Assembly (NCBI GenBank): GCA_003167555.1
Contig: PMSN01000029.1
Coordinates: 122,488 to 186,487 of the forward strand
Reading direction: 5' to 3'
DNA from: Spartobacteria bacterium
GTDB lineage: Bacteria; Verrucomicrobiota; Verrucomicrobiia; Chthoniobacterales; UBA10450
Length of the DNA: 64,000 nt
In this document: positions 3,335-60,452 of the stretch, one piece after another
How positions within the stretch are numbered: position 1 is the stretch's first letter
How the letters are laid out: the number at the start of each line of letters is the position of its first letter
Program-made: the position numbers and the translations under genes
Notes under the pieces: generated by a model
The model's input: the letters and a program-made list of their open reading frames with translations, nothing else
What the model was told of the DNA's origin: nothing
Databases searched by the model: none

Positions 3335-3350
3335 TCGGCGTAGCGCTGCT

Positions 3351-3442
3351 GTCATTCCGAGCACAGTCGAGGAACCCCGTTGACCCCGGATCGACGTTTA
3401 ATCCGAGACTCAACGGGGTCCCTCGACTTCGCTCGGGATGAC
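3351..3442. repeat. REP-like palindrome of the same family as 443-535, 3' of the GH63 gene
   Basis: Arm 3351-3383 is gtcattccgagcacagtcgaggaaccccgttga. The reverse complement of arm 3410-3442 is gtcatcccgagcgaagtcgagggaccccgttga. The two arms are near-perfect complements. Confidence 0.65.
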
Positions 3443-3449
3443 GCCTACA

Positions 3450-3776
3450 TCATCGCCGCATGATGTGGATGGCCAGGATGCGGCTTTGATGGCGCGCGAG
3501 GAGATAATCGATGAAGTCGCCGATGATGGAATTGGGTTTGTTTCCGGACTTCGTCACGACGCGACAGATCAGGACGCCGGTGCGGCTGTGCCATTCGAGA
3601 TTGATCACGCCGTGCGCTTCACGGGCGCTGTGGATTTTTGCCCAGCCATGCGGACGGCCGGGACGTTGATGCTCGGTTGGGACAAGCTTGAATTTTTTCT
3701 CAAGCTGCGGATCGCTCATGATCTTATTGCGCAACGATCCGCGTCCAGTCGTGATGACTTGAATCACCGTTTGCAT
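3450..3776 (-). CDS. hypothetical protein (108 aa)
   Basis: ATG-initiated ORF with non-repetitive, balanced composition. The overlapping plus-strand ORF 3438-4130 starts inside the REP element and is Arg/Ala-rich. I recognise no family. Confidence 0.35.
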   Translation of the reverse strand: MQTVIQVITTGRGSLRNKIMSDPQLEKKFKLVPTEHQRPGRPHGWAKIHSAREAHGVINLEWHSRTGVLICRVVTKSGNKPNSIIGDFIDYLLARHQSRILAIHIMRR

Positions 3777-3889
3777 CGTGAGTTAGGATCAACTCGATGC
3801 CTTCCTTTGCAATGTCGTTTCAAAGGAGGGTCTCACCCAGAGTTGATAGAGATTAGTCGCTCATCCGTTGTGCGCCTTCAGTTTTCTGA

Positions 3890-4423
3890 TCATGGCGCTT
3901 TTGATTCGTCGATGGCGAAATCTTTTCGCTGCGCAAACGAAAGGAAAAGGAGCGCGCCGAGGCCAGCCAGAATCGCGAAATCGAGCACAAGGTGCCACGC
4001 GAACGAGAGCTGGTCGCTCACGTGGCCGAAGCAGCCACAGGAAATATCAAGGCCGCGGGCCTTCGCTGAAATGGTGGCGCCGATAAAAACGAGCATAAGC
4101 ATGAGCACGAGCACGAGGGCACCGGAATAGAGACGGCGGAAGATCAAGGCGAGGCCACCGAGAATTTCCAGCCAAGGCAGATAGAACGCGAGTCGCACCC
4201 CCACCGACCAGGGAAGAATGTGATAGTTTTCGATGTCGCCGGCGAAGCGAACAGGCTCGAGCGCTTTCACCGCGCCCGCGTAGACGAACAAGGCGCCGAT
4301 GAGGATGGCAAGAAAGCGCCAGAGGAAACCGTGAAAGGATGAAGGATGAGGGATGAGGGATGAAACTTGGGGGGCAGCCTGCCCGCCGTAGCCTGGCGAA
4401 GGCGGGTTCGGCGTTTTCTTCAC
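3890..4423 (-). CDS. MauE/DoxX-family membrane protein
   Basis: Four hydrophobic helices and a C-terminal GLDISCGCFG motif, typical of MauE/DoxX proteins that sit next to rhodanese genes. The nearest usable start upstream of helix 1 is GTG at 4423-4421, overlapping the rhodanese TGA as GTGA. The start is uncertain; the ORF is open up to 4543. Confidence 0.7.
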   Translation of the reverse strand: MKKTPNPPSPGYGGQAAPQVSSLIPHPSSFHGFLWRFLAILIGALFVYAGAVKALEPVRFAGDIENYHILPWSVGVRLAFYLPWLEILGGLALIFRRLYSGALVLVLMLMLVFIGATISAKARGLDISCGCFGHVSDQLSFAWHLVLDFAILAGLGALLFLSFAQRKDFAIDESKAP

Positions 4424-4845
4424 TTCTTCTCCCCCAGCCACGCTTCCCATCCACCATCGAGCACGAAGACGTTCTGCAAGCGCGCTTCTTCCCGCAGGCG
4501 GCGCGCTACTTCGCGGCTCGCGCCGCAACTCTCGCTGCTGCAATAAACCACCACGCGTTTTTCCGGCGACCAGGTCGCGAGCATCCGCGGCAGCATTTCG
4601 TTCCAGCGATCTTCATTCAACAAAATGGCGCCGGGCACATGCTGCCTTTCGAATTCCTCTTCCGGGCGCGCGTCGACCCAGATCGCGTTGCCGCCCCAGG
4701 CGCGCGCTTGCGCGACCGTGACCATGTCGGACGCGGCCACCGGGCTTTGCCACGAAACTTTGTCGCGATAGTACAGCGCCTGGCCCACGGCCGGCAGGCA
4801 CGCGAGAGCGAGAAGGAGCAAGCTTTGCCGCAACAACGATTTCAT
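4420..4845 (-). CDS. secreted rhodanese-domain protein
   Basis: Signal peptide MKSLLRQSLLLLALACLPAVGQA. The rhodanese layout is WVDARPEEEFERQHVPGAI...VVVYCSSESCGASREVARRL, with the active-site Cys loop CSSESCG. Confidence 0.8.
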   Translation of the reverse strand: MKSLLRQSLLLLALACLPAVGQALYYRDKVSWQSPVAASDMVTVAQARAWGGNAIWVDARPEEEFERQHVPGAILLNEDRWNEMLPRMLATWSPEKRVVVYCSSESCGASREVARRLREEARLQNVFVLDGGWEAWLGEKK

Positions 4846-4951
4846 CCGCGAATGGTGGATCGCGCGCTCCGCCGCGCGATGGCATCAAATAGCGGCGAAC
4901 CCTCGACTCCAAACATCGAGCGACGGAGCACTCGATTCACCTTCGCTTGCA

Positions 4952-5632
4952 TCAATGCGCGACGGCGGCTGGGGGCGTGACTCGCGCGCTCGCGTAGAAA
5001 ATTTTGGCCGGGCCGGATGACATTTCCGGTTTGATGGTCAGAGTCGCGTTGAGTTGCTTCGCGGTGTCGCGCGGCTGCACGTTGATCTTGAATTCACCCG
5101 CGCCGGAACCCGGCTCCACCTTCGCCGTAAACTCGGGACTCGAGGAAGTGACCTCAAGATTCTTGATCGCCACGCCTTTGCCGGCCTTGGCCAGAATCGT
5201 TTTCGCTTTCGGGTCCTCGCCTGATTGCCAGAAAACAAAGGCCGGCTGCAGCTCGAGCATTTGCGTGATCGTCGCCTTGAGCGTCAGAACGGTCTGCGGC
5301 TTTTGCGGATCGTCCGTGTCCACGGTGATCGTCTTCTGTTGCAGGCCCGTGCGATCGCCAATGCTGAAGGTCGCGGTGATCTCGCCCTTCTCGCCGGGCG
5401 CGACGTCATTCTTCTGCAACGCCGCCACCGTGCAGCCGCAGGAAGTGCGCGGCGCGGATTTGAAGTGAATCGGCTGGTCGCCTTTGTTCTGATATTTGAA
5501 AACGCCCACCGCCGTGGGGTCGCCGATCGCCGGGTGTAGTTCGATCTCGGTTTTCTCCCAAACCAATTCCGCCCGGGCCGTGACGCCGCAAAGAATGATC
5601 GCGCTCAACAAAATGCCGCTTCGCAGTTTCAT
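4952..5632 (-). CDS. DUF1573-domain secreted protein
   Basis: Signal peptide followed by FKYQNKGDQPIHFKSAPRTSCGCTVA, the CGCT signature of DUF1573. The family commonly neighbours rhodanese and MauE/DoxX genes. Confidence 0.75.
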   Translation of the reverse strand: MKLRSGILLSAIILCGVTARAELVWEKTEIELHPAIGDPTAVGVFKYQNKGDQPIHFKSAPRTSCGCTVAALQKNDVAPGEKGEITATFSIGDRTGLQQKTITVDTDDPQKPQTVLTLKATITQMLELQPAFVFWQSGEDPKAKTILAKAGKGVAIKNLEVTSSSPEFTAKVEPGSGAGEFKINVQPRDTAKQLNATLTIKPEMSSGPAKIFYASARVTPPAAVAH

Positions 5633-5698: not shown

Positions 5699-8500
5699 TT
5701 AATTACTCAGCGCGTACGCTTCCACCAGCGCGATGCCGGTGGTGCCCCCAAAACCGCGGACGATCGCCGTGTAGTTCCCGAGAGGCAGGGTCCGCACGAT
5801 GGCTGATTCCAGGTCGTGGTTAGGCGCGACTCCGCTATCGATGATGGCTTGCTTGTTCGGGCTATCGACCCAGTTATCGTTCGACTCGAGTAACGCACCG
5901 TTACCGTCATGCAGCTCCAGAGTCGGATCGGACATTCTTCCAGGGACCGGAACGGACGGACCTAGCGCGCGGATGATCACTTTCTGCGGCGCTTCGCCTA
6001 CTACGATCGTGCCGGCAATCAGGACGTTGTCCCCGGTCTGGACCAAACCGCGTGTGGAAATATTAGCGAGCTTCGAGTCAACCGAGTTATCCAAATCATA
6101 CACTTCTACTACTCCGGTTCCTGTCCCACCATTCGTGCCACGAACGACCGCGGTATATTGGGAGTTGTTCGCGGGCAAGGTAGTGATGATGGCCGATTCC
6201 AGGTCATTGGTTGGCGCGACGCCGCTATCGATGATGGCTTGCTTGTCGGTGCTATCGACCCAGTTGTCGTTCGAAGCGATCAGGCTATTGCCTTGAAAGA
6301 GTTGCAGTGTTGGATCGGCCAGCTTGTCCGGCAAATTCAACGATGGACCGATGGCGCGGATAATGACCTTCTTAGACTGCGTGCCAGTAACGATAAACCC
6401 ACCGATCAGGACGTTATCGCCCGTCTCGACTCGAAGGCGAGTGGAGATGTTTCCGAGCACGTGTGGAAGCCGATAGACGTAGGCTGCGCCCGCCGCCGCC
6501 GTGCCCACAGCCGTAGCGTGGCGGGCGCCGATGATCGCGCTGTCGCCGCTGACTCCGACTCCGATGCCGAAATTGTCGCCGCGGGCACCGTCGCCCGCGA
6601 GGATTTGACTCTGCTGCGTCCAAACGGTGCCGCTCCGCGAAAAGACATACGCAGCGCCCCTGTCATCGTCGGTTAGAATGAAAGGAGGCGTGCCTCCATC
6701 CCACGCATAAGCACCGACGAGAATAGTGTCGTCCTGGATGGCGACCGCGGAAACGCTGAAGAAGTTGTTGGCGTTCCCATCGCTGGCGGTGAGCTTCTGC
6801 TGCAGGTTCCAGTTCAGGGTATTTTGCACGCGCTCGAAGACATAGGCCGCGCCTGCGTCGGTGCCTTTCGTGTCGTCACCCCATGCGCCAATGACCGCGG
6901 TATTGGCTCCCGGATGGCCGCTGAGAGCGACGCTTTGTCCGAACTGGTCGCCGCTGTGCCCGGCCGGCGGTGTAACGGTGACGGTGTTAAAGGCGAGTCC
7001 ACCCGAATCGAACTCGACAATAAGGACGGCTCCAGTTCCGACCCCGGGCTTGCCAATGATCGCCGTGTATTGGTTTGGAAAGGTGCTATCCAGGGCCACG
7101 GCCGTGCCGAGCCGGTTGTTGGCTACATCTTCGCTCTCGAGGATTAGCGTCGAAGTGCTGCCATCCGCATTAATCTTGGCGATCCAGGCGGAGCCGGCGT
7201 TCTGCTCGGCGTTATAAGCTTCGCCCGGCGAGCCTACGAGGACGATGTCACCGTTGATGGCGACGCTGGTTCCGAAAAGATCGCCAGCAGTAAATCCGCC
7301 CGGGGCCACGGCCGCGCCAGTGTAGCTATTGGGCCCATTGCGCTGAAAATAAAAAGCTGTCCCTTTAGTTCCGTTGTCACCGGGGCAGCCATACGCGATG
7401 CGGTTGCCGTTGATAGCCACGCTCATGCCGCATTGTTGCCCCGCGCCGGAGGCCGAGCCAAAGCGCTTATCCAACGCCCAGGAAGAGTTCGGGAATACGC
7501 CCGTCCGAACAAACACATACACCGCACCTACATCCGCATTAGATCCCACATCTTCGCGCCAGGCGCCTACTACCGCCAGGTTACCATCAATGGCCACCGC
7601 GGTGCCGAAGCGAGCGTCCGCCTGCGGAATGTCGCTGCGTAATTTCTGCTCGAGCGACGCGATGAAAGGATCGAGCACAATCGGATAACGCGCCCCCGCA
7701 TCTTCCACTACCAAGGCAATCTCTCTCCCTTCCGCTCTTGCCTCCATTCGCGCCGCGAGCGGCTTCCCATCCGCATCCGTCGCGACGAGCGTGCTGTAAC
7801 TGATCGCGCCTTTTCCCTTGCCATCTACTAACTCAATCTTTCCTTCGTCTGAAGACCGCGCATGCAGATCGCCCGTCACCGCCAGCAACAGGCGCAAAGG
7901 CTCCTTAGGTGCAACGCCACCGCTTCGCTCAGGCCGCTCGTTCAAAGTAAAGCCTTGCTCGATCCCTCCCGCACGGTTCTCATACCACTCGACTAATTTC
8001 GGATCCGCCGTCTGACCTCCGGCCTCTGACTTCTGGCCTCTGCGCTCATACTCGATCCTGTTTCCTTTGACCTCTCGCGAGACGATGGGCAGAACATCGG
8101 CTGGCTGGTCGCCGTAACCGCAGGCCTTCAAGCGCAGGGCGGTGCTCCACGCCTGATCGCGTTTCGCCTCCGGCAAGGTAGGCCGCACTGTCACGCCATC
8201 CTGGTCGAACCACGCATTTAGGTTCTGCTCGTGACTCATAGCCAGGTATCCGCCGCCGGCCTCGCTGTCGCCCGGCGCGTGCTCTTGCCACTGCAAACCG
8301 AAGCGTGCCACTGTCAGTGCCTGCAGCAATGACTGGCCGCCGCCGGTTTGGACCAGATAATCCGATGCCGCCTTGCCGGCCAGCTGTATTTTGGGTGCTC
8401 CGTTGCCGTGGGTCGCCGGCCACGTGTGAAACGCCTCGACGAAAAGAACGAGGGCAATGACACAAAAAAGAACCGAACACCAACGCGACAGAATCTTCAT
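5699..8500 (-). CDS. secreted FG-GAP-repeat protein with C-terminal tandem NISTR module
   Basis: ATG at 8500 precedes the signal anchor MKILSRWCSVLFCVIALVLF. The N-terminal WYENRAGGIEQGFTL region is shared with the 32202-38789 protein. Repeated FG..VAI.G...VVGA......GA.YVF units are of the FG-GAP_2 type. The last ~250 aa are two module copies (about 5702-6457) ending VEAYALSN-stop. Confidence 0.85.
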   Translation of the reverse strand: MKILSRWCSVLFCVIALVLFVEAFHTWPATHGNGAPKIQLAGKAASDYLVQTGGGQSLLQALTVARFGLQWQEHAPGDSEAGGGYLAMSHEQNLNAWFDQDGVTVRPTLPEAKRDQAWSTALRLKACGYGDQPADVLPIVSREVKGNRIEYERRGQKSEAGGQTADPKLVEWYENRAGGIEQGFTLNERPERSGGVAPKEPLRLLLAVTGDLHARSSDEGKIELVDGKGKGAISYSTLVATDADGKPLAARMEARAEGREIALVVEDAGARYPIVLDPFIASLEQKLRSDIPQADARFGTAVAIDGNLAVVGAWREDVGSNADVGAVYVFVRTGVFPNSSWALDKRFGSASGAGQQCGMSVAINGNRIAYGCPGDNGTKGTAFYFQRNGPNSYTGAAVAPGGFTAGDLFGTSVAINGDIVLVGSPGEAYNAEQNAGSAWIAKINADGSTSTLILESEDVANNRLGTAVALDSTFPNQYTAIIGKPGVGTGAVLIVEFDSGGLAFNTVTVTPPAGHSGDQFGQSVALSGHPGANTAVIGAWGDDTKGTDAGAAYVFERVQNTLNWNLQQKLTASDGNANNFFSVSAVAIQDDTILVGAYAWDGGTPPFILTDDDRGAAYVFSRSGTVWTQQSQILAGDGARGDNFGIGVGVSGDSAIIGARHATAVGTAAAGAAYVYRLPHVLGNISTRLRVETGDNVLIGGFIVTGTQSKKVIIRAIGPSLNLPDKLADPTLQLFQGNSLIASNDNWVDSTDKQAIIDSGVAPTNDLESAIITTLPANNSQYTAVVRGTNGGTGTGVVEVYDLDNSVDSKLANISTRGLVQTGDNVLIAGTIVVGEAPQKVIIRALGPSVPVPGRMSDPTLELHDGNGALLESNDNWVDSPNKQAIIDSGVAPNHDLESAIVRTLPLGNYTAIVRGFGGTTGIALVEAYALSN

Positions 8501-44798: not shown

Positions 44799-45035
44799 AT
44801 GAATGCCGTTCTTTCTGAAAAAGGGCAGATCACCATTCCCAAACCGCTGCGCGATAAGCTCGGTCTTCTCCCAGGCGCGGTCCTCGAATTCGGCGCGGTC
44901 AATGGGAAACTGGTGGCTCGCAAACAAGTCGCACAGGACGTTTTTAAGAAATGGCGGGGACATGGCCGCTTGCCAAAGAAGATAACAGTCGACGCCTACC
45001 TGAAGAAAGCGCGCGATGCTCACGGCCGTCGATAG
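44799..45035 (+). CDS. vapB: AbrB/MazE(SpoVT)-type antitoxin
   Basis: MNAVLSEKGQITIPKPLRDKLGLLPGAVLEF is the swapped-hairpin AbrB-type motif. It overlaps the downstream PIN gene by 20 nt. Confidence 0.8.
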   Translation: MNAVLSEKGQITIPKPLRDKLGLLPGAVLEFGAVNGKLVARKQVAQDVFKKWRGHGRLPKKITVDAYLKKARDAHGRR

Positions 45036-45420
45036 CTCCGTGCTGCTCGATGTCGTGGTCGATTCACCGGCCCATGCAGACGCGTCAGAAAAGGCCCTCC
45101 GTAAGGCCGCGTCGGAAGGCGGCCTGATCATTTGTGAATGCGTGCTGGCGGAAATCCGGCCGGCCTTCTCCGATCGCGCGGCGATTGAACAATTCATGGC
45201 CGATTGGCAACTGCGATTCGTGCCTTCCGCTCCCGAGAGCGCCTTGCGGGCCGGTGAACTCTTCGGTCTCTATCTGAAACGCGGCGGCAGAGGCGGACGC
45301 GTGATTGCCGATTTCCTCATTGGCGCCCACGCGAGTTTGCACGCGGACCGCCTGCTCGCCCGCGATCGGGGATATTTGCGCGATTACTTTTCGCGACTCA
45401 AACTGCTCAGCTCTGAGTAA
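45016..45420 (+). CDS. vapC: PIN-domain ribonuclease toxin
   Basis: The N-terminal AVDSSVLLDVV carries the first acidic residue. It also has E in CVLAEI, ADFLIGAHA and a C-terminal LARDRG. Confidence 0.82.
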   Translation: MLTAVDSSVLLDVVVDSPAHADASEKALRKAASEGGLIICECVLAEIRPAFSDRAAIEQFMADWQLRFVPSAPESALRAGELFGLYLKRGGRGGRVIADFLIGAHASLHADRLLARDRGYLRDYFSRLKLLSSE

Positions 45421-52721: not shown

Positions 52722-52802
52722 GCTCGGGTGGTGAAATGGCAGACACGTACGTTTGAGGGGCGTATGCCGCAAGGCATGGGGGTTCAAGTCCCCCCCCGAG
52801 CA
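52722..52802 (+). tRNA. tRNA-Leu (anticodon GAG)
   Basis: Hand-folded. The acceptor stem GCTCGGG/CCCGAGC has 7 of 7 pairs. The D arm is GTG-AAATGGCAGA-CAC. The anticodon stem TACGT/GCGTA carries the loop TTGAGGG, giving anticodon GAG with G37. There is a long variable arm TGCCGCAAGGCAT, a T arm GGGGG-TTCAAGT-CCCCC, and discriminator A. CCA is not encoded. Confidence 0.9.
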
Positions 52803-52841
52803 TTCCCCCCCAATCCTCCTCTTCCTCTTCCGCTGCTCATC

Positions 52842-52860
52842 CTCAAGTCCCCCCCGAGCA
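52842..52860 (+). repeat. direct repeat of the tRNA-Leu 3' end (att-like scar)
   Basis: ctcaagtcccccccgagca at 52842-52860 compares with ttcaagtccccccccgagca at 52783-52802. There is one substitution and one C fewer. Confidence 0.6.
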
Positions 52861-53132
52861 CTCCGCCGCTGCGCGGCGGAACGTCCAACCCGCCTTCGCC
52901 TGGGACGGGCTACGCCGTGGCGAGCGCCCAACGTCCAACCCGCTGTAGCCGCCCCGCTGTGTCGGGGCGTCGTGGCGCGAGAGATCACGGCGACTGAGCG
53001 CCGTGGCTACAGCTGCCGAAGGTGGATCGAGCGCTCCGCGCTCGATGCCAATAACTGGGCGGCGAAGCCGTAACTGTTTTAAGATCGTGCGGCGGAGCGC
53101 CCGATCCACCCCAAAACAACGAGGCCCGGAAT

Positions 53133-53309
53133 TCAATCGCCGCGCTCCAGCGCCGGCCTCGACTGGCTGAAAGAGGCGGCGGCGGTGCGGTTTTCCACGC
53201 CCAGTTTCACGAACATGCGCTCCAGACATTTCTTCACCGTGCACAATTTCATCTGCTCGAGCGCGGCGATTTCTTCGTTCGTCTTGCCGTAGCGCACCCA
53301 ATGCAGCAC
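53133..53309 (-). pseudogene. LuxR/GerE-type HTH fragment (truncated regulator or very small standalone HTH)
   Basis: The minus-strand frame reads ..AVLHWVRYGKTNEEIAALEQMKLCTVKKCLERMFVKLGVENRTAAASF..stop (stop at 53133-53135). The frame is open only back to a TAG at 53367-53369. It has no ATG; the only plausible start is GTG at 53309. No receiver or ligand domain is present. Confidence 0.4.
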
Positions 53310-53700
53310 GGCCGGGTCCTGCGTCGCATCCAGAATGACCCTTTTGACCTCTCCTCGCGCAGTCTTCTACTTTCTACTTTCTACTTTCTTCCGGATCGGC
53401 ACCGGCGGCGAAGTCGGCGATTGGAGCGACCCCGCGCAATTCCTCGTGCACTGAGGTCGCTGTAGTGGCAGAGCCTGCCCTGAGCGAAGTCGAGCGGGTG
53501 CCGGTTGCAAAACGCAGTTACAACGGGCGGGAAGAAATTCCAGCCTAGTGGTTTTCCTTCGGGTACTCGTCACATGTTCGCCGAAGGACGAATCCGCCGT
53601 GGCGGGTTACTCGTCACTTTTTCGTGCTGAGATTCTAAGACTAACCCTTTTCCGCCTTGTAGCCGCGAAACTCCGTCAGTGAGGATACGCCATTCAGTCT

Positions 53701-54495
53701 CTACATATTCAAGTCTTTTTCACCATCAGCAGCATTGAAGTCTATGTTTGCCTTCAAGTCGGCCTGGCCGACGTGATCGCCGATCGCATTGAAGACTTCC
53801 AAGTGGCCACCGTACTGATGGAAATTGTCGACGCACATATAAAATGTCGTGCGGCGATCCAAGTAAACAACGCGTCCTTGGTTTCGATAGTTTGTACGAA
53901 AGAAACGCCCGCGATCCGCTAGAACGGTCTCGGTATCGCGGGGCGGACGCCCCCAAGCTGGGTCATATCGTGCTAAGCCAAGCTCTGGAAATTGCTGATA
54001 GCATTCATCGAGGTCCCCCTCCGTATTGACGCTCTTTACAATCACGGAAGTCTCCGGTTCTTTCAGCACGGCGGTTTGCCTATCTGGTCCAAACGCCGAC
54101 GGATGGAAGTTTACCAAGATTGCAAAACGCTCTCGCAGTGTGCGCTCGGCAACCTCAGCAACACTAGTGCCGGTCACATTTTGGTCGTGACAGACATAAG
54201 AACATTCAGAGTGAAGGCGTTCAAGGCGCCACTCCTTGCCTGCCAGCCGCTCACGCAGTAGGATTTTGAATTGAAGCCGCACCGACTTGTCGGTGATATG
54301 TTCCAGACACGAACTGAAGACTCTATTTGGTAGGCCAAGCGAGTAATAAAGTTGTCTGTCAAAGAATAATTCTTTTTCTACGGGAGCTTCTAACAATCGT
54401 AAAAGGATCCGATTCAAACGCGCCAGCGCGAGCGCAAAATCCGCAAGGTCAATGAACTGTGAATGCACCGAACGCTCATTGACGAAGGCTTCCAT
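53701..54495 (-). CDS. hypothetical protein (264 aa), third gene of the DUF262/AAA cluster
   Basis: ATG at 54495 directly abuts the stop of the AAA gene (TGAATG junction at 54493-54498). The region is AT-richer than the flanks. I recognise no family. Confidence 0.65.
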   Translation of the reverse strand: MEAFVNERSVHSQFIDLADFALALARLNRILLRLLEAPVEKELFFDRQLYYSLGLPNRVFSSCLEHITDKSVRLQFKILLRERLAGKEWRLERLHSECSYVCHDQNVTGTSVAEVAERTLRERFAILVNFHPSAFGPDRQTAVLKEPETSVIVKSVNTEGDLDECYQQFPELGLARYDPAWGRPPRDTETVLADRGRFFRTNYRNQGRVVYLDRRTTFYMCVDNFHQYGGHLEVFNAIGDHVGQADLKANIDFNAADGEKDLNM

Positions 54496-55683
54496 TCACT
54501 CCCGGAAAATATAGTCTAAGTCGGCTTCCATCTGATCGAAAAACCCGTGGGGCCAACCGGCAAGTTGACCCTTCGCGTCAATTGCGACCGGATCGATGGC
54601 ACTCCGCATCGCATTCGCTTCACCAGCTTCAGATCGAAAGAAGTAGATCTGAATCTCTTCGAAAGGCATTTTACCATCGCGAACCGCACGGCGAACGCCA
54701 TTCAGAACATGATCGCTGTGAGTCTCGACAACCAACTGAAGACCCGCAGCGGCAGCGACCGCAAGAAAGTGGCCAATCTGTGATTGGCCCGCTGGATGTA
54801 AGTGAGTTTCCGGATTCTCAATCAACAGTAGTCTGCCGGGCAATGCTGAGACACAAGCCGTAACGATCGGTAAGACGTGGGTTAGACCGAACCCAACATT
54901 CGACGGCCTAAAGAAATCGCCGCCTGGGGAGGTTCTTATACCCATTGATACGAGATTTGCCGCATCAACGCGGCGAATCTCCATTTGGAAGCCCGGAAAC
55001 ATCTGGGCCATCCACGCCTGCACTGTCAGACGTACAAATTCTGGAACACCAGGCAATGCCAGACTCGGATTTATGGAGGAGTCGGCAAATTGCTCTAAGC
55101 ACCAAGGAGTCTTCTCCCCTTGTGTACCTACTTCTGGATACACGAGTGGCGTTTGGGCTGCATAAACATCCCGTGGCCCAAGTCGCTCCGCGCCGATGTG
55201 AGCTATCGATCCCACTTTGAACTGGATTGCTTGAAAAAGATCGGGGTCGACTCTAGAAAGGACGTCCGGCATTAACCGTTGCAGCGCACTGCGCTTGGGA
55301 TCTTCAACGCTCCAATCAATTGTATGCCTACCACTGCGGAACTCGATTCGGGATATAGGAGCGACCAAATCTGTCGTCCGCTCTTTCGATCTTGTCTCCC
55401 ATAAAATGCGCCACTCCTTCGTAGCCAGATCTATGGCAAAGCCTTGTCCTCCCACACCCCGATCGATGACGTCAAACATCGTCCCAAGTGTCACGGAGGT
55501 CCCATTTAGCAAAAGCGATTGACTCCATTCACTCTCTTGTGCCGTCTGTCGCAAAACCGCCAAGCTCTGCACAACACTCGATTTACCTGCTGCGTTATGC
55601 CCCGTGAGTAGCGTCAGGCCACCCAGCTTGCGTCTGAAAGTGCCTAAGCACTTAAAGCTTTCGATGCCGAGCTCTGTGAACAT
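54496..55683 (-). CDS. AAA-type ATPase with C-terminal DUF3696-like region (ABC/OLD-like ATPase)
   Basis: Walker A is LLTGHNAAGKSS. Walker B plus the following His are LLLIENPETHLHP, then VVETHSDHVL. The C-terminal GWPHGFFDQ motif is as I recall for DUF3696. Confidence 0.8.
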   Translation of the reverse strand: MFTELGIESFKCLGTFRRKLGGLTLLTGHNAAGKSSVVQSLAVLRQTAQESEWSQSLLLNGTSVTLGTMFDVIDRGVGGQGFAIDLATKEWRILWETRSKERTTDLVAPISRIEFRSGRHTIDWSVEDPKRSALQRLMPDVLSRVDPDLFQAIQFKVGSIAHIGAERLGPRDVYAAQTPLVYPEVGTQGEKTPWCLEQFADSSINPSLALPGVPEFVRLTVQAWMAQMFPGFQMEIRRVDAANLVSMGIRTSPGGDFFRPSNVGFGLTHVLPIVTACVSALPGRLLLIENPETHLHPAGQSQIGHFLAVAAAAGLQLVVETHSDHVLNGVRRAVRDGKMPFEEIQIYFFRSEAGEANAMRSAIDPVAIDAKGQLAGWPHGFFDQMEADLDYIFRE

Positions 55684-57112
55684 CCGGAAGGAGCGATCCT
55701 AGGACTGATTCTGCGATGTCGAAACGCGCCCGAACCTTTTTTGTGGAATTAGTGCCATACGAAATTGCATCCATAAATACAGAGTCGTCCATCAGAGTGA
55801 AAAACGCAGTTTGGATTTCCGACGCTTTCGCCCGGACGACATCTTCTGGTGCGCAAGAGAGCAAAACCGAAAACACATCGAAAAGCGCAACGTTAATAAC
55901 GCTTCGCCGACCGCTGGGGCTTCGATGCTTTCGGAAAGCGTGAACTCCGAATACCGTGTAGTTATTTCTCATACTGATACGAAATCCCAGATCCAGTTCG
56001 GGTAACACATCAGCAGAACGGCGATTCATAATCTTCAGCACTTGCGCTAGGAAAGCGTCCATGTCGCCGCGAGAGTAAGAATCGGAACCCAATAAACGGA
56101 ATGCGCAGTAGCGGTTAACACATTCGCGGTCTCGCATGGTACGCCAGTCTAAGCTGCCTGCGGTAGCCGTAACGAATTCCTCTGACTCGACAGCTTGACG
56201 CAGCCAACGCGTTGCCTCGCCGCAATAAATAGAATTGCGCATTTGCTGTCGCGTCAATGGCACCCCGCCGTTAACGCGGTCAAAGATGTCCAGTTTAGCC
56301 TGCTCGGGGACCTTAGCATCGATCAGATAGAGGATCAGTTGCGTATCTTCAAGACGGTTCTGGAGCTTCGGCGGCAGTTGTGAGTAGCTCTTGCCATTCA
56401 GCTCAGCTGCGAGTTCTAAGTCTCGGAGCACGAATTCATCTTCTAGAAATCTCAGGAATGTCGTCAGACGCTGTAAACCATCCACAACGATGGTCTTCCC
56501 GTCCTCTCGTTCTGCGAGGTAGAAGACCGGCAATGGTATTCGCATCACCATTGACTCTATCAGCTTACTTTGCTTATCGAGATTCCAAATGAAATCTCGC
56601 TGGAAATCTGGGTCCATTATGAAGCGTTCATCCTTGATGCGACGTACAATCTCAAAGACTGTCCGTGTTTCCTGACGAATCAGTACACTGTCGAGAGGGT
56701 ACTCGCCGAACTGCTCAGGGGCGCTCTTATCAAGTCCTTCTATTCCGGATGCTGAATCAAACAGGTCGTCAAAAGCTTCGATGTTCGCGGCGCGAAGATC
56801 CGCTACGGATGTATATTCGGCTGCTTTCTCGGTTAGTTCCCAAACAGCTCGATCAACCGGACGGACGAGACCGAGACTCTTCAAATATGTGCGCGCCCAA
56901 GCAAGTCGATAGCTAAGTTTCGTTCGTGTGCCTTCGTGAATTTCAGACAGATCGGCCTCACTCAGATTCAATACTTGAGCGACCTCGCGTTCCTGCTCTT
57001 CGATAGATGCCGGTCGTCCAATGCGCTGCAAACCTCTGAGAAGCGCATCTATGAGGAGAGTTTCAGATGGAAGCGGCATATCGTAGCGAAGGTAATCTAT
57101 TGCGCTCCACAA
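55652..57112 (-). CDS. DUF262 (ParB-like/GmrSD N-terminal type) protein with Mrr_N-like winged-helix N-terminus
   Basis: The N-terminus (LLRGLQRIGRPASIEEQEREVAQVL...TKLSYRLAWARTYLKSLGLV) resembles the Mrr N-terminal wHTH. The DUF262 core is DPDFQRDFIW...LIESMVMRIPLPVFYL...IVVDGLQRLTTF (DGQQR-type motif). I saw no DUF1524/HNH motif at the C-terminus. It overlaps the AAA gene by 32 nt. Confidence 0.75.
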   Translation of the reverse strand: MWSAIDYLRYDMPLPSETLLIDALLRGLQRIGRPASIEEQEREVAQVLNLSEADLSEIHEGTRTKLSYRLAWARTYLKSLGLVRPVDRAVWELTEKAAEYTSVADLRAANIEAFDDLFDSASGIEGLDKSAPEQFGEYPLDSVLIRQETRTVFEIVRRIKDERFIMDPDFQRDFIWNLDKQSKLIESMVMRIPLPVFYLAEREDGKTIVVDGLQRLTTFLRFLEDEFVLRDLELAAELNGKSYSQLPPKLQNRLEDTQLILYLIDAKVPEQAKLDIFDRVNGGVPLTRQQMRNSIYCGEATRWLRQAVESEEFVTATAGSLDWRTMRDRECVNRYCAFRLLGSDSYSRGDMDAFLAQVLKIMNRRSADVLPELDLGFRISMRNNYTVFGVHAFRKHRSPSGRRSVINVALFDVFSVLLSCAPEDVVRAKASEIQTAFFTLMDDSVFMDAISYGTNSTKKVRARFDIAESVLGSLLPDVHRARHRKL

Positions 57113-57354
57113 TGAATATTTCCGGAACTAAAGCAAGACCCCAACTTTGATCGCTCGCAACGACGAATCCGTCTTTTGGGGAGCGCAGTGTGCAGGCAGG
57201 GTCAGTCTGTGATTCCCGGCAAGGCGGCAGGAATGTAGAAATTAGAAAGGAGGAAGCGTCGAAGTAAATGCGGAATGCGAAATACGCCGCGACGGGATCG
57301 GAGGTCGGCGGTCGAGGGGCAAACGCGCGCTGAGCTTATTTTCGCCGGCGGATT

Positions 57355-57576
57355 TCAGGCATCGCGTCGGGCGCCGTAGAAACCGCGGACAATTGTCTCG
57401 CGAACGCGAGAGGCTTCGGCGGGATCGGCGGCCTCCACTAGTCGCGAGGCCAGCGTGGACAACTCAGGACCGCTAAGCTTTCGTTCGGCATCAAGCTGAT
57501 AGATGAAACGCATGACGCCCGCCTGCTCTTCCGGGGTGAGGCTTTTGATCTCGTCGATGATCTGGGACGCGGTCAC
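57355..57576 (-). CDS. small hypothetical protein, possibly an addiction-module-component-like antitoxin
   Basis: 73 aa. The N-terminus IIDEIKSLTPEEQAGVMRFIYQL resembles the short putative addiction module component family. No partner toxin is evident. Confidence 0.3.
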   Translation of the reverse strand: MTASQIIDEIKSLTPEEQAGVMRFIYQLDAERKLSGPELSTLASRLVEAADPAEASRVRETIVRGFYGARRDA

Positions 57577-57713
57577 AACATGAAATTAATTCGCATCATC
57601 GAATTGAGCAAGCCTCGAGCACAATCGGAGGACCACCCTTCGCCAAGCCGCCTTTGCAAAAGCTACGGCGAGCCAGGGGCTACGGCGTGGCAGGCGGAGG
57701 CACACGGGGGCTG

Positions 57714-60452
57714 CTACGGCAGGAAGTAGACCTGGACTACGCCGGTCCCGGTAGTCTCCGGTTTGCCTCGCACTTGGGCGGTGTATTGCCCGGGCGGGAG
57801 CGTCGCGACAACGGCCGCTTCCAGGTCATTGGTCGGTTGCAGGCCGGTAGCCTCAATCTCGGCTTGCTGGCTGCCCCCATCGGAGGACCGGATTTTCCAA
57901 TCATCGTTCTCTACCACGAGGGCGCCGTTCCCGTCCCTTAACTGAAGCGTGGTGTCCGGCAGGGCGTTGGTGATTCCAAACGCAGCCAGGGAAGGTCCTA
58001 TCGCCCGGACCACGGCTCGGACCGATCCATTCTGGGTAATAAAGCCGGCGATCATGAGTTTATCGCCGGGTTGAATCAAACCTCTGGTCGCGACGTTGAC
58101 GAGCTTGGCGGAAGATGCCGCGCTGAGATCGTAGGCATCGACGACCCCGGTGCCAACGCTGTTCCCCGCCCCGCGCACAACCGCAGTGTAACTGCCCGGA
58201 GGAAGGTTCGCGATGATCGCGGACTCGAGGTCGTTGCCAGGTGCGACTCCGCTCGCGGCGATCTCCGCGGATTGATCGGCGGTGATGATGCCTCCTAGCT
58301 GCGTGGTTTTCCAATTGTCGTTGGTCGCCACGATGGCATTCCCGTTAGTCGCATCATGGATCTCCAGCGTCGGGTTGGGGAGCGCGTCAGTTATGCCAGA
58401 GGCGGCGAGCGATGGGCCAATCGCGCGCACGATGATTTTCTTGGTGGAGCCAGCCGGCCCTTGCACGATGAAGCCTTCGATGAGCACGTTATCACCCGTG
58501 CCGACTGGGAGGCGGGTAGCGACGTTGGCGACCAGGCCGGGCACCACTTGCACTTCAAAGGCTCCTATGTCGCTGCCGTCGCCGCCGGCAGCATTCGCAA
58601 CATTTGGATTGTCGTAGATGCGTGGGAAACCTGCGTCGCGTTGATCGGTAGCGGGCGTTCCGTTGGGAGTAACGCTGTTGCCGTGATCAATCGCCGGGCT
58701 GCCGGGGAGAAGCGCGATCGTCTGGGTGGGTCCGCCATTATTCTGCAACCCGTTTGGATCGAGTTTGGGGTCAAGCGGGGCATTGTTGTTCCCGACCAGG
58801 TCCATCGGGGCACTAAAGCCGGTGCTGCCATTGGTCTTACTAATTAAGTTGAAGCCCTGCGAAGCGTAAGTGCCATCGACATCCGGAGATTGGGCGGAAT
58901 TGTTCGCGATAAGGGTACTCTTGACGTTAACAGTGCTGCCATTAGTCGCGAAGACGCCACCGCCCAACCCGGCGGCGGTGGGACTGCCGCTTCCTCCCGT
59001 CGCAGAATTTAGCGCGATGGTCGTGCTAGTAACGGTATAGGTGCCGTTGCCGGCGAAGAAGATGCCGCCGCCGGAAGCCGCGCCGCCCACGTTTCCACTT
59101 AAGCCCCGCCCGCCTTGCACCGAATTCCCCGCAATGGTGCAGTTCACGGCAGTTAAAGAACCAGAGCTATACACCCCGCCGCCGAAAGCTCCGCCGGCGG
59201 TTCCATTCATGGCCTCACCGCCCCCGGCGGAATTACCGGATACCGTACTGCCGCTGATCGTTAACGGGGCCGTGTGGAAAATGCCGCCTCCAGAGCCGGA
59301 GCCAGCGCCAGATCCACCGAAAAGTCCCGAGACCATGTTACCGGTGATCGTGCAATTGGTGACCGTCATCGTCCCCGCTCCGTGATAGATTCCACCTCCT
59401 TTGCCATCGGATGTGCCGGTGCCCTGAACGAATGCTGTGTTGGCCGAGAAGATACAACCAGTGGCAGTGAAGGTTCCTGAAAAGTTGGCCGCGCCGCCTC
59501 CACTGCTGGCCGAGTTCGCGGTCAGTGTGCAGCCGGTAAGAGTAACTGTTCCACCGCCATGGTTCGTGATTCCGCCGCCGTCGGCCGCATTGGACACGAT
59601 GCCATTCGGAACCCCGCCCGCGACATTGTGGTCGAGCGTGCAGTTCGTCACGTTCACGGTGCCGGCGGCAAAATTGGCTACTCCGCCGCCTCCCTTGGTC
59701 CCAAGCGCGCCATTACTGCTGATGGTGCAGCCCGTAATAGTCACCACGCCGCTCGCTTGATTTAGAATGGCGCCTCCTGGCTCATCCCCAAAGTTATTGC
59801 CGGCCGAGTTACCGGCGATATTTTGAGAAAAGACGCAATTGCTGATGAAGACGTTCGCGCTTTGCACGTTGGCAATGGCCCCACCGCCGTTAATGGCCTG
59901 ATTGGAGGAGAAGGTGCAATTGGTAATGTTAATCGTAGCGGTATTGGCGTTTTGAATTCCAGCGCCAAAGCCGTTCTGGAGGAGCACTCCGCCACTTATG
60001 GTGATGTCGCTAAAGCTCACTGTGCCGGCCGTGGTCACGTTGAAGACACGAAAGGCGTTCGAATTGTTGGCATTCGCGTGGACAGTTAGCTTTCCGGCGC
60101 CGGGGCCCTGAACGCTGAGGTTGGTGCTCAGGTCGGGCAGCGCATTGTTAAGCGTGATCGTAAAGACGCCCGTGCTACTGTTGTAGCCGGGATCGGTCGT
60201 GGGGATATTGAAGAAGATCCCGTCATCGCCTGCGTGGCCATTCGCCGCCTCGATCGCCGCTCGCAGCGTGCAATGGCCCGTGCCGTCGTTGCATTGTGTG
60301 ACGGGACCCACGTTATGGCCGTCGCCCGTGCTATCGACCGTATAGGCAAGTCCACACGTGGGCGGACATGTCGCGAAGCTGCGCTCCGTAAGGCACTCGC
60401 CTAATAGAAATGAGACCAGCGCCACCCGAAGAAACAAGGCCCGGCTTCTCAT
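57714..60452 (-). CDS. secreted CSLREA-motif / beta-helix repeat protein with a divergent (subfamily 2) C-terminal tandem module
   Basis: Signal peptide MRSRALFLRVALVSFLLGECL. CTLRAAIEAANGHAGDDGIFF is followed by a long run of GGG/NCT beta-helix repeats. The modules VANVATRLPVGTGDNVLIEGFIVQG...NDNWKTT...GVVDAYDL and LVNVATRGLIQPGDKLMIAGFI...NDDWKIR...GVVQVYFLP-stop lie at about 57717-58533. Confidence 0.85.
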   Translation of the reverse strand: MRSRALFLRVALVSFLLGECLTERSFATCPPTCGLAYTVDSTGDGHNVGPVTQCNDGTGHCTLRAAIEAANGHAGDDGIFFNIPTTDPGYNSSTGVFTITLNNALPDLSTNLSVQGPGAGKLTVHANANNSNAFRVFNVTTAGTVSFSDITISGGVLLQNGFGAGIQNANTATINITNCTFSSNQAINGGGAIANVQSANVFISNCVFSQNIAGNSAGNNFGDEPGGAILNQASGVVTITGCTISSNGALGTKGGGGVANFAAGTVNVTNCTLDHNVAGGVPNGIVSNAADGGGITNHGGGTVTLTGCTLTANSASSGGGAANFSGTFTATGCIFSANTAFVQGTGTSDGKGGGIYHGAGTMTVTNCTITGNMVSGLFGGSGAGSGSGGGIFHTAPLTISGSTVSGNSAGGGEAMNGTAGGAFGGGVYSSGSLTAVNCTIAGNSVQGGRGLSGNVGGAASGGGIFFAGNGTYTVTSTTIALNSATGGSGSPTAAGLGGGVFATNGSTVNVKSTLIANNSAQSPDVDGTYASQGFNLISKTNGSTGFSAPMDLVGNNNAPLDPKLDPNGLQNNGGPTQTIALLPGSPAIDHGNSVTPNGTPATDQRDAGFPRIYDNPNVANAAGGDGSDIGAFEVQVVPGLVANVATRLPVGTGDNVLIEGFIVQGPAGSTKKIIVRAIGPSLAASGITDALPNPTLEIHDATNGNAIVATNDNWKTTQLGGIITADQSAEIAASGVAPGNDLESAIIANLPPGSYTAVVRGAGNSVGTGVVDAYDLSAASSAKLVNVATRGLIQPGDKLMIAGFITQNGSVRAVVRAIGPSLAAFGITNALPDTTLQLRDGNGALVVENDDWKIRSSDGGSQQAEIEATGLQPTNDLEAAVVATLPPGQYTAQVRGKPETTGTGVVQVYFLP

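Follow-up and report, generated by a model that had tools for sequence, protein, structure and literature searches.

The window that we analysed is the whole of a 64,000-nucleotide stretch of DNA from an uncultured soil member of the Chthoniobacterales (Verrucomicrobiota). A tRNA-Leu(GAG) gene (52722..52802, + strand; ARAGORN) marks the edge of the conserved backbone. An att-like scar lies 41 nt downstream, comprising an 18-nt copy of the tRNA 3′ end (TCAAGTCCCCCCCGAGCA; 52843..52860, + strand) that is the sole such match in the window. It differs from the 3′ end of the tRNA-Leu by one C in a run of C nucleotides; the copy is identical to the tRNA 3′ end of L068, and has a weak match to the 3′ end plus flank in L059. 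Beyond it is a 58-aa ORF (53133..53309, − strand) that contains only a GerE/LuxR-type HTH (Pfam GerE, 7.4e-07; NCBIfam EpsA positions 199-243 of 247, 3.2e-11). There is an in-frame stop 19 codons upstream and the N-terminal domain is missing, so that this is a truncated LuxR/EpsA-type remnant; it is not part of the operon that follows. Repeat elements are also found in these surroundings.

Three genes follow on the − strand, nsnC (53701..54495), nsnB (54496..55683) and nsnA (55652..57079), encoding proteins of 264, 395 and 475 aa respectively. The nsnA and nsnB genes overlap by 32 nt, and the ATG of nsnC comes directly after the TGA of nsnB; this tight coupling fits with co-translation of the three subunits. 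The proteins match the PADLOC models for the components of the Menshen system, with NsnB (8.7e-95) and NsnC (PDLC03889, 9.2e-54) covered over their full length and NsnA (7.8e-118) over its core, i.e. positions 22-380 of the 385 in the model. Menshen (NsnABC) is the system of Millman et al. 2022 (citation taken from PMC12065111), to whom anti-phage activity of the S. silvestris copy against T2, T4, T6 and Fado is credited. Li et al. 2025 (PMC12065111) set out Type II Menshen and list Mrr_N explicitly as an NsnA-N sensor domain; the present operon is assigned to this type because its NsnA bears an N-terminal Mrr_N winged-helix sensor domain. The A-B-C gene order is found at three other independent loci (L004, L005/L006 and L007/L008), one of which also has Mrr_N, and nsnC homologs always lie downstream of the NsnA and NsnB genes.

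Every sequence feature listed in a preliminary description of this DNA, including the tRNA copy, the truncated HTH and the TGAATG junction, was present where it had been placed, and its proposal of a three-component anti-phage system is supported. It had left the trio unmatched to any named system, and held that a match to one would refute its reading. The trio maps cleanly to Menshen, and the architecture with Mrr_N on NsnA is already described as Type II Menshen, so that the novelty implied earlier does not hold.

NsnA, the sensor, comprises an Mrr_N winged helix, a ParB-DUF262 domain and a C-terminal ParBDB region. A TTG at 57112 is an alternative start that would give a protein of 486 aa (55652-57112); the ATG is favoured by two gene callers. 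In the 486-aa numbering, Mrr_N (Pfam PF14338, 7.1e-15; 56816..57052, − strand) corresponds to residues 21-99, outside the PADLOC core model, while the GmrSD_N NTPase/sensor core (PF03235, 8.8e-22; 56225..56653, − strand) spans residues 154-296. Both domains had been recognised in the preliminary description. Comparison with the DUF262 motif patterns QRxxxW, DGxQR and FxxxN shows that all three are present, as QRDFIW at 160, DGLQR at 200 and FDRVN at 266.

NsnB is an ABC/OLD-type ATPase and the proposed transducer, and has the AAA_21 (6.2e-22) and DUF3696 (2.6e-11) domains anticipated for it. It contains a Walker A sequence GHNAAGKS at 28, GFG at 264, a variant Walker B LLLIEN at 285 and HSD at 322, in agreement with the EN Walker B and GxG variants that PMC12065111 gives as specific to NsnB. 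The DUF3696 C-terminal helix (PF12476, residues 342-390; 54514..54660, − strand) is predicted by AlphaFold 3 models in the same paper to be the dock for the N-terminal domain of NsnC.

No family had been recognised for the third gene. This is true of Pfam and NCBIfam, where none was found, but not of PADLOC, and all 55 aligned NsnC homologs match NsnC models only. AlphaFold 2 predicts two domains (pLDDT 93.2, pTM 0.83), and the C-terminal domain modelled alone gave a pLDDT of 93. We could not reproduce a PIN-like N-terminal domain by Foldseek, which returned only weak Rossmann-like matches (prob <0.2). The C-terminal domain (residues 176-264; 53704..53970, − strand) is beta-rich. When the model of this domain alone was compared with the PDB by Foldseek, colicin E3 RNase took the first four places (prob 0.97-0.99, TMq 0.48-0.61), ahead of 4ntq_A, the 16S rRNase CdiA-CT(ECL), in fifth. 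By E-value the likeness to colicin E3 is marginal (Foldseek 0.05-0.2; hhalign probability 41%), and Pfam Cytotoxic (PF09000) misses the domain, with a match in just one of the 55 family members (E=0.1). The hhalign comparison of NsnC against an E3-family profile (P=2.9e-4) aligns the catalytic motifs, pairing D510, H513, E517 and H526 of E3 with D223, H226, E233 and H241 of NsnC. Across the family each of these four is either invariant or conserved to at least 90%, and together with R208, also conserved, they are candidate catalytic residues that agree with the Tox-ColE3 signature R, Dxx[HK], E, H (PMC3482391). Colicin E3 and CdiA-CT(ECL) both cut 16S rRNA between A1493 and G1494.

NsnC is the likely effector of the trio, with a C-terminal RNase-like domain, and it appears to carry a colicin-E3-like ribosome-cutting RNase. 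Structure prediction, which had been suggested as a way of finding an effector fold in the 264-aa protein, gave one that resembles RNases. The rRNase assignment is an incremental but testable detail of a known system. According to Li et al. the commonest NsnC effector has a YafQ-like BECR fold, and 15 NsnC-C families are named (PMC12065111). It is possible, if rather doubtful, that the operon is Menshen with a RelE/YafQ-like BECR mRNA interferase or tRNase as its C-terminal domain, so that translation would be blocked through a different RNA. Yet no structure of RelE, YafQ, colicin D or colicin E5 is present among the Foldseek matches, which are led by the four of E3 and that of CdiA-CT(ECL), and the conserved R, DxxH, E and H are those of the E3 signature rather than the H-R-H or H-D-H triad of PB-BECR1/YafQ.

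A type IV restriction-like function, where NsnA would recognise modified phage DNA and either NsnC or an unseen partner would be a DNase, has some attractions. DUF262 proteins such as GmrSD, BrxU and SspE detect modified DNA and set a nuclease in action, Mrr_N derives from the type IV enzyme Mrr, there is a match to the PADLOC mREase_IV model (1.1e-05), and validated Menshen protects against T-even phages, the DNA of which is modified. We nevertheless consider this unlikely. No DUF1524, HNH, PD-(D/E)xK or Toprim domain was detected in any of the three proteins by Pfam and PADLOC, and the sole enzyme-like effector domain resembles RNases. The absence of a DUF1524/HNH nuclease had been noted before, with the suggestion that the third protein may replace it; NsnC is indeed the likely effector, but most likely as an RNase rather than as a DNase that takes the place of HNH.

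The trio is richer in AT than its surroundings, with a GC content of 51.3% compared with 58.3% for the window. Equal-sized windows elsewhere have a mean GC of 0.583 (sd 0.016, minimum 0.542) against 0.513 for the trio, and the lowest-GC window of this size in the 64 kb (start 53601) covers it. GC3 is 0.51-0.53 in the trio and 0.64-0.81 in neighbouring genes. The AT-richer segment extends only from about 53.4 to 57.2 kb, essentially the operon alone, because the LuxR fragment (0.81) and a 73-aa ORF upstream of nsnA (57355..57576, − strand; 0.69) have host-like GC3; the larger islet proposed earlier is reduced to this extent. The 73-aa ORF has no match in Pfam, PADLOC or NCBIfam. It goes with this operon, being present also on the independent 4.6-kb contig L003, but is absent from L004, L006, L007 and the 80 related loci, and is not conserved with other copies of Menshen.

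None of the 80 orthologous PHP–tRNA-Leu loci in related Chthoniobacterales genomes contains the operon. In most of these the tRNA-Leu adjoins the PHP gene, while in six it is 2-10 kb away or reversed; synteny stops at tRNA-Leu(GAG), and nothing beyond is shared. Together with the composition, this supports the view that the operon is accessory and compositionally foreign, i.e. the acquired module that had been suggested. The case for a connection with the tRNA is weaker than was proposed. The 3′-end copy does not bracket the operon, being just 41 nt from the tRNA, and integration at the tRNA site is without support since neither an integrase nor a distal att repeat was found at the locus.

The truncated LuxR gene, the att-like scar and the repeat elements are signs of decay nearby, and no sigma-70-like promoter was found upstream of the operon. 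These might indicate decaying or selfish cargo that at present plays no part in defending the host, such as an inactive remnant or a toxin module of the addiction type. We regard this as very improbable, as the three ORFs are full length against the HMMs with all catalytic and signature motifs intact, the coupling overlaps are preserved, and the same arrangement is present on independently assembled contigs. We are highly confident that the trio is an intact, horizontally acquired Type II Menshen (NsnA-NsnB-NsnC) operon, in the variable region starting at tRNA-Leu(GAG).

The likely mechanism would be DNA sensing by NsnA, switching of the NsnB ATPase, and translational shutdown by the NsnC RNase. 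By analogy, invading DNA would be bound by the Mrr_N winged helix and the ParB-DUF262/ParBDB core of NsnA, and DUF262 would serve as a switch that depends on NTP, to judge from GmrSD/SspE and Li et al. 2025. NsnB may hold NsnC by its DUF3696 tail and, when ATP is bound or hydrolysed, release or activate it, as would be expected from AlphaFold 3 models in the literature and from a comparison with Gabija, Septu and PARIS. From the fold similarity and the conservation of the signature residues we infer RNase activity in NsnC, which would most likely cut the 16S rRNA decoding centre, or another RNA of translation. Protein synthesis would then stop and the infection be aborted.

The closest structural relatives of the NsnC C-terminal domain are Tox-ColE3 (colicin E3, cloacin DF13 and pyocin S6; PF09000) and CdiA-CT of E. 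cloacae (4NTQ), with which it shares the R, DxxH, E, H signature and catalytic segments that align profile to profile. It differs in lacking an HMM-level match to PF09000, and in 9-residue and 4-residue insertions in the catalytic segment. Whereas those toxins are secreted, and are neutralised by Im3- or CdiI-type proteins, NsnC is predicted to be an intracellular effector that is fused to an alpha/beta N-terminal domain and controlled by an ATPase, and the operon has no immunity gene.

The DUF262-DUF1524 type IV restriction-like enzymes GmrSD, BrxU and SspE resemble NsnA in their DUF262 NTPase/sensor, which bears the three motifs given above and precedes a helical DNA-binding domain. By contrast the present operon has no DUF1524/HNH, fused or adjacent, and an ABC ATPase links the sensor to an RNase-like effector that is a protein in its own right. 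PD-T4-2 and Dazbog are further DUF262 systems that lack DUF1524, and in both the DUF262 protein has no HNH domain fused to it; PD-T4-2_A matches NsnA at 7.4e-33, far weaker than the NsnA model at 7.8e-118, and the partner genes of these two systems are not present at this locus. Similarity also extends to defence systems that pair an ABC ATPase with an effector, namely Gabija (GajA), Septu (PtuAB), PARIS (AriAB) and OLD nucleases: NsnB partially matches the models for GajA, PtuA, AriA and Old, and the published NsnB4-NsnC2 model resembles an ATPase dimer that clamps a single effector. However, NsnB has no Toprim and its full-length match is to the NsnB model only, and Menshen adds a dedicated sensor subunit, NsnA.

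In gene content and gene order the operon agrees with Type II Menshen, and its three genes are tightly coupled. The shared architecture extends to NsnA with Mrr_N ahead of ParB-DUF262 and ParBDB, NsnB as an ABC ATPase with the EN Walker B, GxG motif and DUF3696 tail, and a two-domain NsnC of ~260 aa with a predicted C-terminal RNase-like effector. It differs from known Menshen in the lineage of its host, an uncultured soil Chthoniobacterales, and it has diverged from the nearest full operon found (L004), with identities of 73% for NsnA, 65% for NsnB and 48% for NsnC.

The three genes lie on the minus strand. An ORF scan places nsnA at 55652-57112 (486 aa from a TTG start codon, or 475 aa if it begins with the ATG at 57079, as two gene callers have it), nsnB at 54496-55683 (395 aa) and nsnC at 53701-54495 (264 aa). 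The nsnA and nsnB reading frames overlap by 32 nt, and the TGA stop codon of nsnB is followed immediately by the ATG of nsnC, with no gap. NsnA matches its profile in PADLOC-DB at 7.8e-118, while NsnB (8.7e-95) and NsnC (PDLC03889, 9.2e-54) match over their full length. On the basis of these sequence matches the trio is identified as the three components of the Menshen anti-phage system (i.e. NsnA-NsnB-NsnC). The preliminary description had treated the trio as a module without a name, and this view has to be given up since the PADLOC run matches it to a described system.

NsnA contains Mrr_N (Pfam, 7.1e-15) and GmrSD_N/DUF262 (8.8e-22) domains. The DUF262 motifs QRxxxW, DGxQR and FxxxN are retained as QRDFIW at residue 160, DGLQR at 200 and FDRVN at 266. 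The PADLOC match to the NsnA core covers residues 122-472 (model positions 22-380 of 385), and by this alignment a putative C-terminal ParBDB helical domain follows DUF262. The Mrr_N domain occupies residues 21-99, and thus lies ahead of DUF262 and outside the core match. In Type II Menshen, NsnA carries an additional N-terminal sensor. This is a wHTH in most cases, and Mrr_N is one of those listed by name (Li et al. 2025, PMC12065111). Judged by the position of Mrr_N outside the NsnA core, the architecture of the operon is exactly that of Type II. NsnB comprises AAA_21 (6.2e-22) and DUF3696 (2.6e-11) domains, the latter forming a C-terminal tail. Its motifs include a Walker A sequence GHNAAGKS, a Walker B sequence LLLIEN, GFG and an H-loop HSD. 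Two of these are the Menshen-specific variants, with EN replacing DE in Walker B and GFG replacing SGG. The product of the gene immediately downstream of nsnB is an NsnC by its PADLOC match, and AlphaFold2 gives it two domains, the C-terminal one being the putative effector. NsnC matches no Pfam family. Searches for solved structures found no close relative of NsnA, and for NsnB gave only a marginal P-loop match to an OLD nuclease.

A profile search returned 62 NsnC homologs, of which 55 were full length and were aligned. All 55 match NsnC models exclusively in PADLOC. At three independent loci the gene for the NsnC homolog comes straight after those for a GmrSD_N protein and an AAA_21/DUF3696 protein, so that the order A-B-C on one strand is found in the window, in contig L004 and in the contig pairs L005/L006 and L007/L008. 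The trio is therefore co-conserved. The L004 operon (2145-5525) also has an Mrr_N-containing NsnA; its identity to the window operon (53701-57079) falls from 73% for NsnA to 65% for NsnB and 48% for NsnC, showing that the effector diverges fastest. This would be consistent with diversification in an arms race. In the operons of L005/L006 and L007/L008 (L006 4412-7786; L007 4406-7789) NsnC is of the same family, and NsnA lacks Mrr_N; its N-terminal domain is a different one, ~148 aa long. Such variation between loci is the sensor/effector polymorphism reported by Li et al. The surroundings in L006 and L007 are defence islands, with Dcm/Vsr, a DUF2357-PDDEXK_7 (McrBC-like) gene, a phage-integrase fragment and Thoeris ThsA/ThsB.

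The structure of NsnC was modelled by AlphaFold2 using the 55-sequence alignment, giving two domains with a pLDDT of 93.2 and a pTM of 0.83. The N-domain (residues ~1-170; window 53986-54495) has an alpha/beta fold, for which Foldseek returned only weak Rossmann- or SLOG-like matches. In the published assignment it is an inactive-PIN-like fold (Li et al., PMC12065111). The polar residues N6, E7, S9, W89, S111, E114, E117 and S133 are nearly invariant in the 55 homologs, suggesting that this set may form a functional surface or site.

In the model the C-domain (residues 176-264) begins with short helical turns, after which come five beta-strands. Colicin E3 provides the top three PDB matches when the full NsnC model is searched with Foldseek. 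With a model of the C-domain alone (pLDDT 93.6) the top four matches are the colicin E3 RNase, with probabilities of 0.97-0.99, E-values of 0.1-0.2, TMq of 0.48-0.61 and TMt of 0.45. The fifth is the CdiA-CT toxin domain of Enterobacter cloacae (4ntq_A; probability 0.75, TMt 0.57). The structure prediction proposed for the 264-aa protein points to an RNase-like fold for the C-domain, in keeping with the earlier suggestion that gene 3 encodes the effector.

The sequence was compared with that of colicin E3 by profile alignment. The E3 RNase-domain sequence was confirmed against ColE3-type plasmids and PDB 1E44/1JCH, and an E3-family profile was built. Alignment of the NsnC C-domain profile with this one by hhalign gave P = 2.9e-4 and a probability of 41%, with 39% identity over 36 columns. 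It pairs GRxVY of NsnC with GRxIYE of E3, D223-N-F-H226 with D510-S-Q-H513, HLE233VF with ELE517GY, and GDH241VG with GQH526LG. H231, L232, E233, V234 and F235 are invariant in the NsnC family, and conservation is 90% or more at D223, H226, H241, R197 and R208. Zhang et al. 2012 (PMC3482391) have given the Tox-ColE3 signature as "R, Dxx[HK], E, H", and they emphasise that its second histidine is conserved universally; NsnC has the same R, DxxH, E, H pattern at R208, D223, H226, E233 and H241.

We note that the E-values for the similarity to E3 are marginal. Pfam PF09000 does not match the window NsnC at E up to 10, and matches one of the 55 homologs with E = 0.1. As this HMM fails to recognise the sequence, we call the C-domain E3-like without assigning it to Tox-ColE3. 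Neither the PDB, searched by profile and with the C-domain alone, nor Pfam at E≤10 nor NCBIfam revealed a sequence-level relative of NsnC, and the BFVD library of viral structures gave no meaningful match. An exhaustive profile search found the C-domain in 662 clusters at 50% identity, nearly always at the C-terminus of proteins of ~255-290 aa, so it is a common type of NsnC effector.

Both E3 and CdiA-CT(ECL) cleave 16S rRNA between A1493 and G1494 (PMC9086364). We tentatively take 16S rRNA to be the most likely target of the NsnC effector. It is also conceivable, if somewhat doubtful, that the widespread C-domain is a divergent 16S rRNase of the colicin E3 type. Li et al. have described the Menshen effectors as BECR RNases, and an alternative is that NsnC is a BECR interferase directed against mRNA or tRNA, which we consider somewhat less likely. 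Some authors place the E3 and ECL toxins within BECR, and Li et al. (PMC12065111) cite Ntox21 as one BECR relative of the Menshen effectors; Ntox21 is the E. cloacae CdiA toxin domain according to Zhang et al. 2012 (PMC3482391). To read the C-domain as E3-like thus agrees with the BECR designation and does not overturn it. The trio includes no DNase domain, and so we regard action of the operon on DNA, in the manner of restriction, as improbable.

By sequence, homology and structure prediction, NsnA is intact, with its wHTH and the NTPase core of DUF262; NsnB is likewise an intact ABC ATPase that ends in DUF3696; NsnC bears an RNase signature like that of E3; and the three genes are tightly coupled. 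The literature suggests how these might work together. NsnA would sense phage DNA, and a tetramer of NsnB would clamp the N-domain of NsnC between the DUF3696 tails. Binding or hydrolysis of ATP by NsnB might then gate NsnC, by analogy with Gabija, Septu and PARIS. Once freed or activated, NsnC would cut an RNA required for translation, and the infection would abort. If the C-domain were an E3-type 16S rRNase, a large fraction of Menshen systems would defend by cutting the decoding centre of the host ribosome under the control of an ABC ATPase, and the fold of a bacteriocin or CDI toxin would have been re-used as an intracellular abortive-infection effector with no immunity protein. The polar cluster of the N-domain might then be a built-in inhibitor, or a surface for recognition of the ribosome or RNA.

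The base composition of the operon is atypical, as had been proposed. The GC content of the trio is 0.513, compared with a mean of 0.583 (sd 0.016, minimum 0.542) for segments of equal size elsewhere, i.e. ~4 sd lower. At third codon positions it is 0.51-0.53, compared with 0.64-0.81 for neighbouring genes. On one side lies a LuxR/GerE HTH sequence of 58 aa (53133-53309, minus strand) that matches NCBIfam EpsA (3.2e-11) at model positions 199-243 of 247. It has no N-terminal domain and there is an in-frame stop 19 codons upstream, so it is a gene remnant. On the other, directly upstream of nsnA, is orf73 (57355-57576, 73 aa), for which Pfam, PADLOC and NCBIfam all give no match. It accompanies the operon on the independent 4.6-kb contig L003, and is missing from other Menshen loci and from 80 related genomes. 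The GC3 values of the remnant (0.81) and of orf73 (0.69) are host-like, so the foreign-looking segment is essentially the operon alone. No sigma-70-like promoter was found in a promoter scan of the operon region, and a terminator scan gave terminator-like sites at no more than chance level.

The window comes from a ~245-kb scaffold (ENA record WOOD18-1; JGI metagenome record). Its sole tRNA, identified by ARAGORN, is tRNA-Leu(GAG) (52722-52802, plus strand). A copy of the tRNA 3′ end, TCAAGTCCCCCCCGAGCA (18 nt, 52843-52860), is one C shorter than the original and is the only match in 64 kb. The tRNA, the copy of its 3′ end, the LuxR fragment and the three minus-strand ORFs were all as first described. 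Integration of the trio at the tRNA is not supported. No distal att copy was found by a pattern search allowing up to three mismatches, nor by a repeat scan of 52.5-57.8 kb, which gave the proximal 18-nt copy only, and there is no integrase among the flanking genes. With a lone repeat 41 nt from the tRNA, no distal repeat and no integrase, the idea of a classic att-bracketed tRNA island is rejected. The copy encloses just these 41 nt and weakly resembles the native 3′ end and flank of the relative L059 (E = 0.006), and so seems to have been left behind by an earlier event.

Related loci were collected through the flanking PHP-family gene, giving 80 orthologous loci with an amino-acid identity of 62-82%. 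With few exceptions their MAGs carry the label Chthoniobacterales, Spartobacteria or other Verrucomicrobia. The PHP gene and tRNA-Leu are present in every locus, and orf153, the next backbone gene, in about 77. No NsnA, NsnB or NsnC gene lies within 10 kb in any of them, nor does the LuxR remnant or orf73. Synteny with the window breaks at the tRNA in all 80, and the intergenic DNA beyond cannot be aligned. Since it is absent from these loci and synteny stops at the tRNA, the operon is accessory and lies in a lineage-variable region. The match to Menshen, the atypical composition and this absence together agree with the general idea of a horizontally acquired three-gene defence module.

The tRNA-Leu neighbourhood is a recurrent site of rearrangement or insertion in this lineage. 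The variable segments of the related loci L021 and L009 contain no integrase or defence gene, just beta-helix, kinase/TPR and amylase-like proteins. The evidence for an integration hotspot consists of the variable content and one partial tRNA copy. In related genomes, as in L021, L009, L011 and L017, tRNA-Leu is sometimes 2-10 kb away from the PHP gene. L021 has a full tRNA (127-207) and a 48-nt partial copy (7582-7629), 7.4 kb apart and with no integrase between them.

Several other features were observed around the operon. The segment 52860-53115 is ~68% GC and is made of small palindromic and direct repeats (I1, 52942-53013; I2, 53021-53110; D2, 52880/52930). These repeats recur at unrelated sites in other Chthoniobacterales genomes (e.g. 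L061 13470-13564, in both orientations, and L024, L028, L032 and L047), and look like a lineage-specific family of REP/MITE-like elements. The heptamer CTACTTT occurs three times at ~53365-53392, just upstream of the LuxR remnant and near the onset of the drop in GC. A 912-aa beta-helix protein (57714-60452) adjoins the operon and a 1291-aa protein lies further out (61619 to the end of the window; L001 190-4065); they have a common C-terminal module of ~270 aa, paralogous copies of which (36-50% identity) recur near tRNA-Leu in many related genomes. At ~44799-45420 (L002 20264-20885), ~8 kb from the operon, a PIN-domain toxin and MazE/AbrB-type antitoxin pair was called on the source scaffold, embedded among otherwise housekeeping glycosyltransferase and epimerase genes.

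The operon is a clean case of defence genes in a variable region that starts at a tRNA and from which mobility genes have gone. A literature search found no mechanistic experiment on Menshen. Given this, and that neither NsnA nor NsnB has a close solved relative, predictions at the level of residues and substrate are of some practical value. The candidate catalytic residues of NsnC are D223, H226, E233 and H241, together with R208, and the candidate substrate is 16S rRNA at the decoding centre.

In the type IV restriction enzymes GmrSD and BrxU, DUF262 is fused to a DUF1524 HNH domain. By contrast, neither NsnA nor its neighbours here contain DUF1524 or HNH, as the preliminary description had remarked. 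Li et al. 2025 (PMC12065111) catalogued 1,997 Menshen loci, spread over at least 27 phyla. In the account of Li et al. (PMC12065111) that cites Millman et al., the Menshen system of Solibacillus silvestris gives protection from phages T2, T4 and T6 and the Bacillus phage Fado. This is the only validated system reported; the window operon is predicted to protect against phage. The Type II architecture with Mrr_N was already catalogued, and the operon adds to it one Menshen example of metagenomic origin, from soil Verrucomicrobia.
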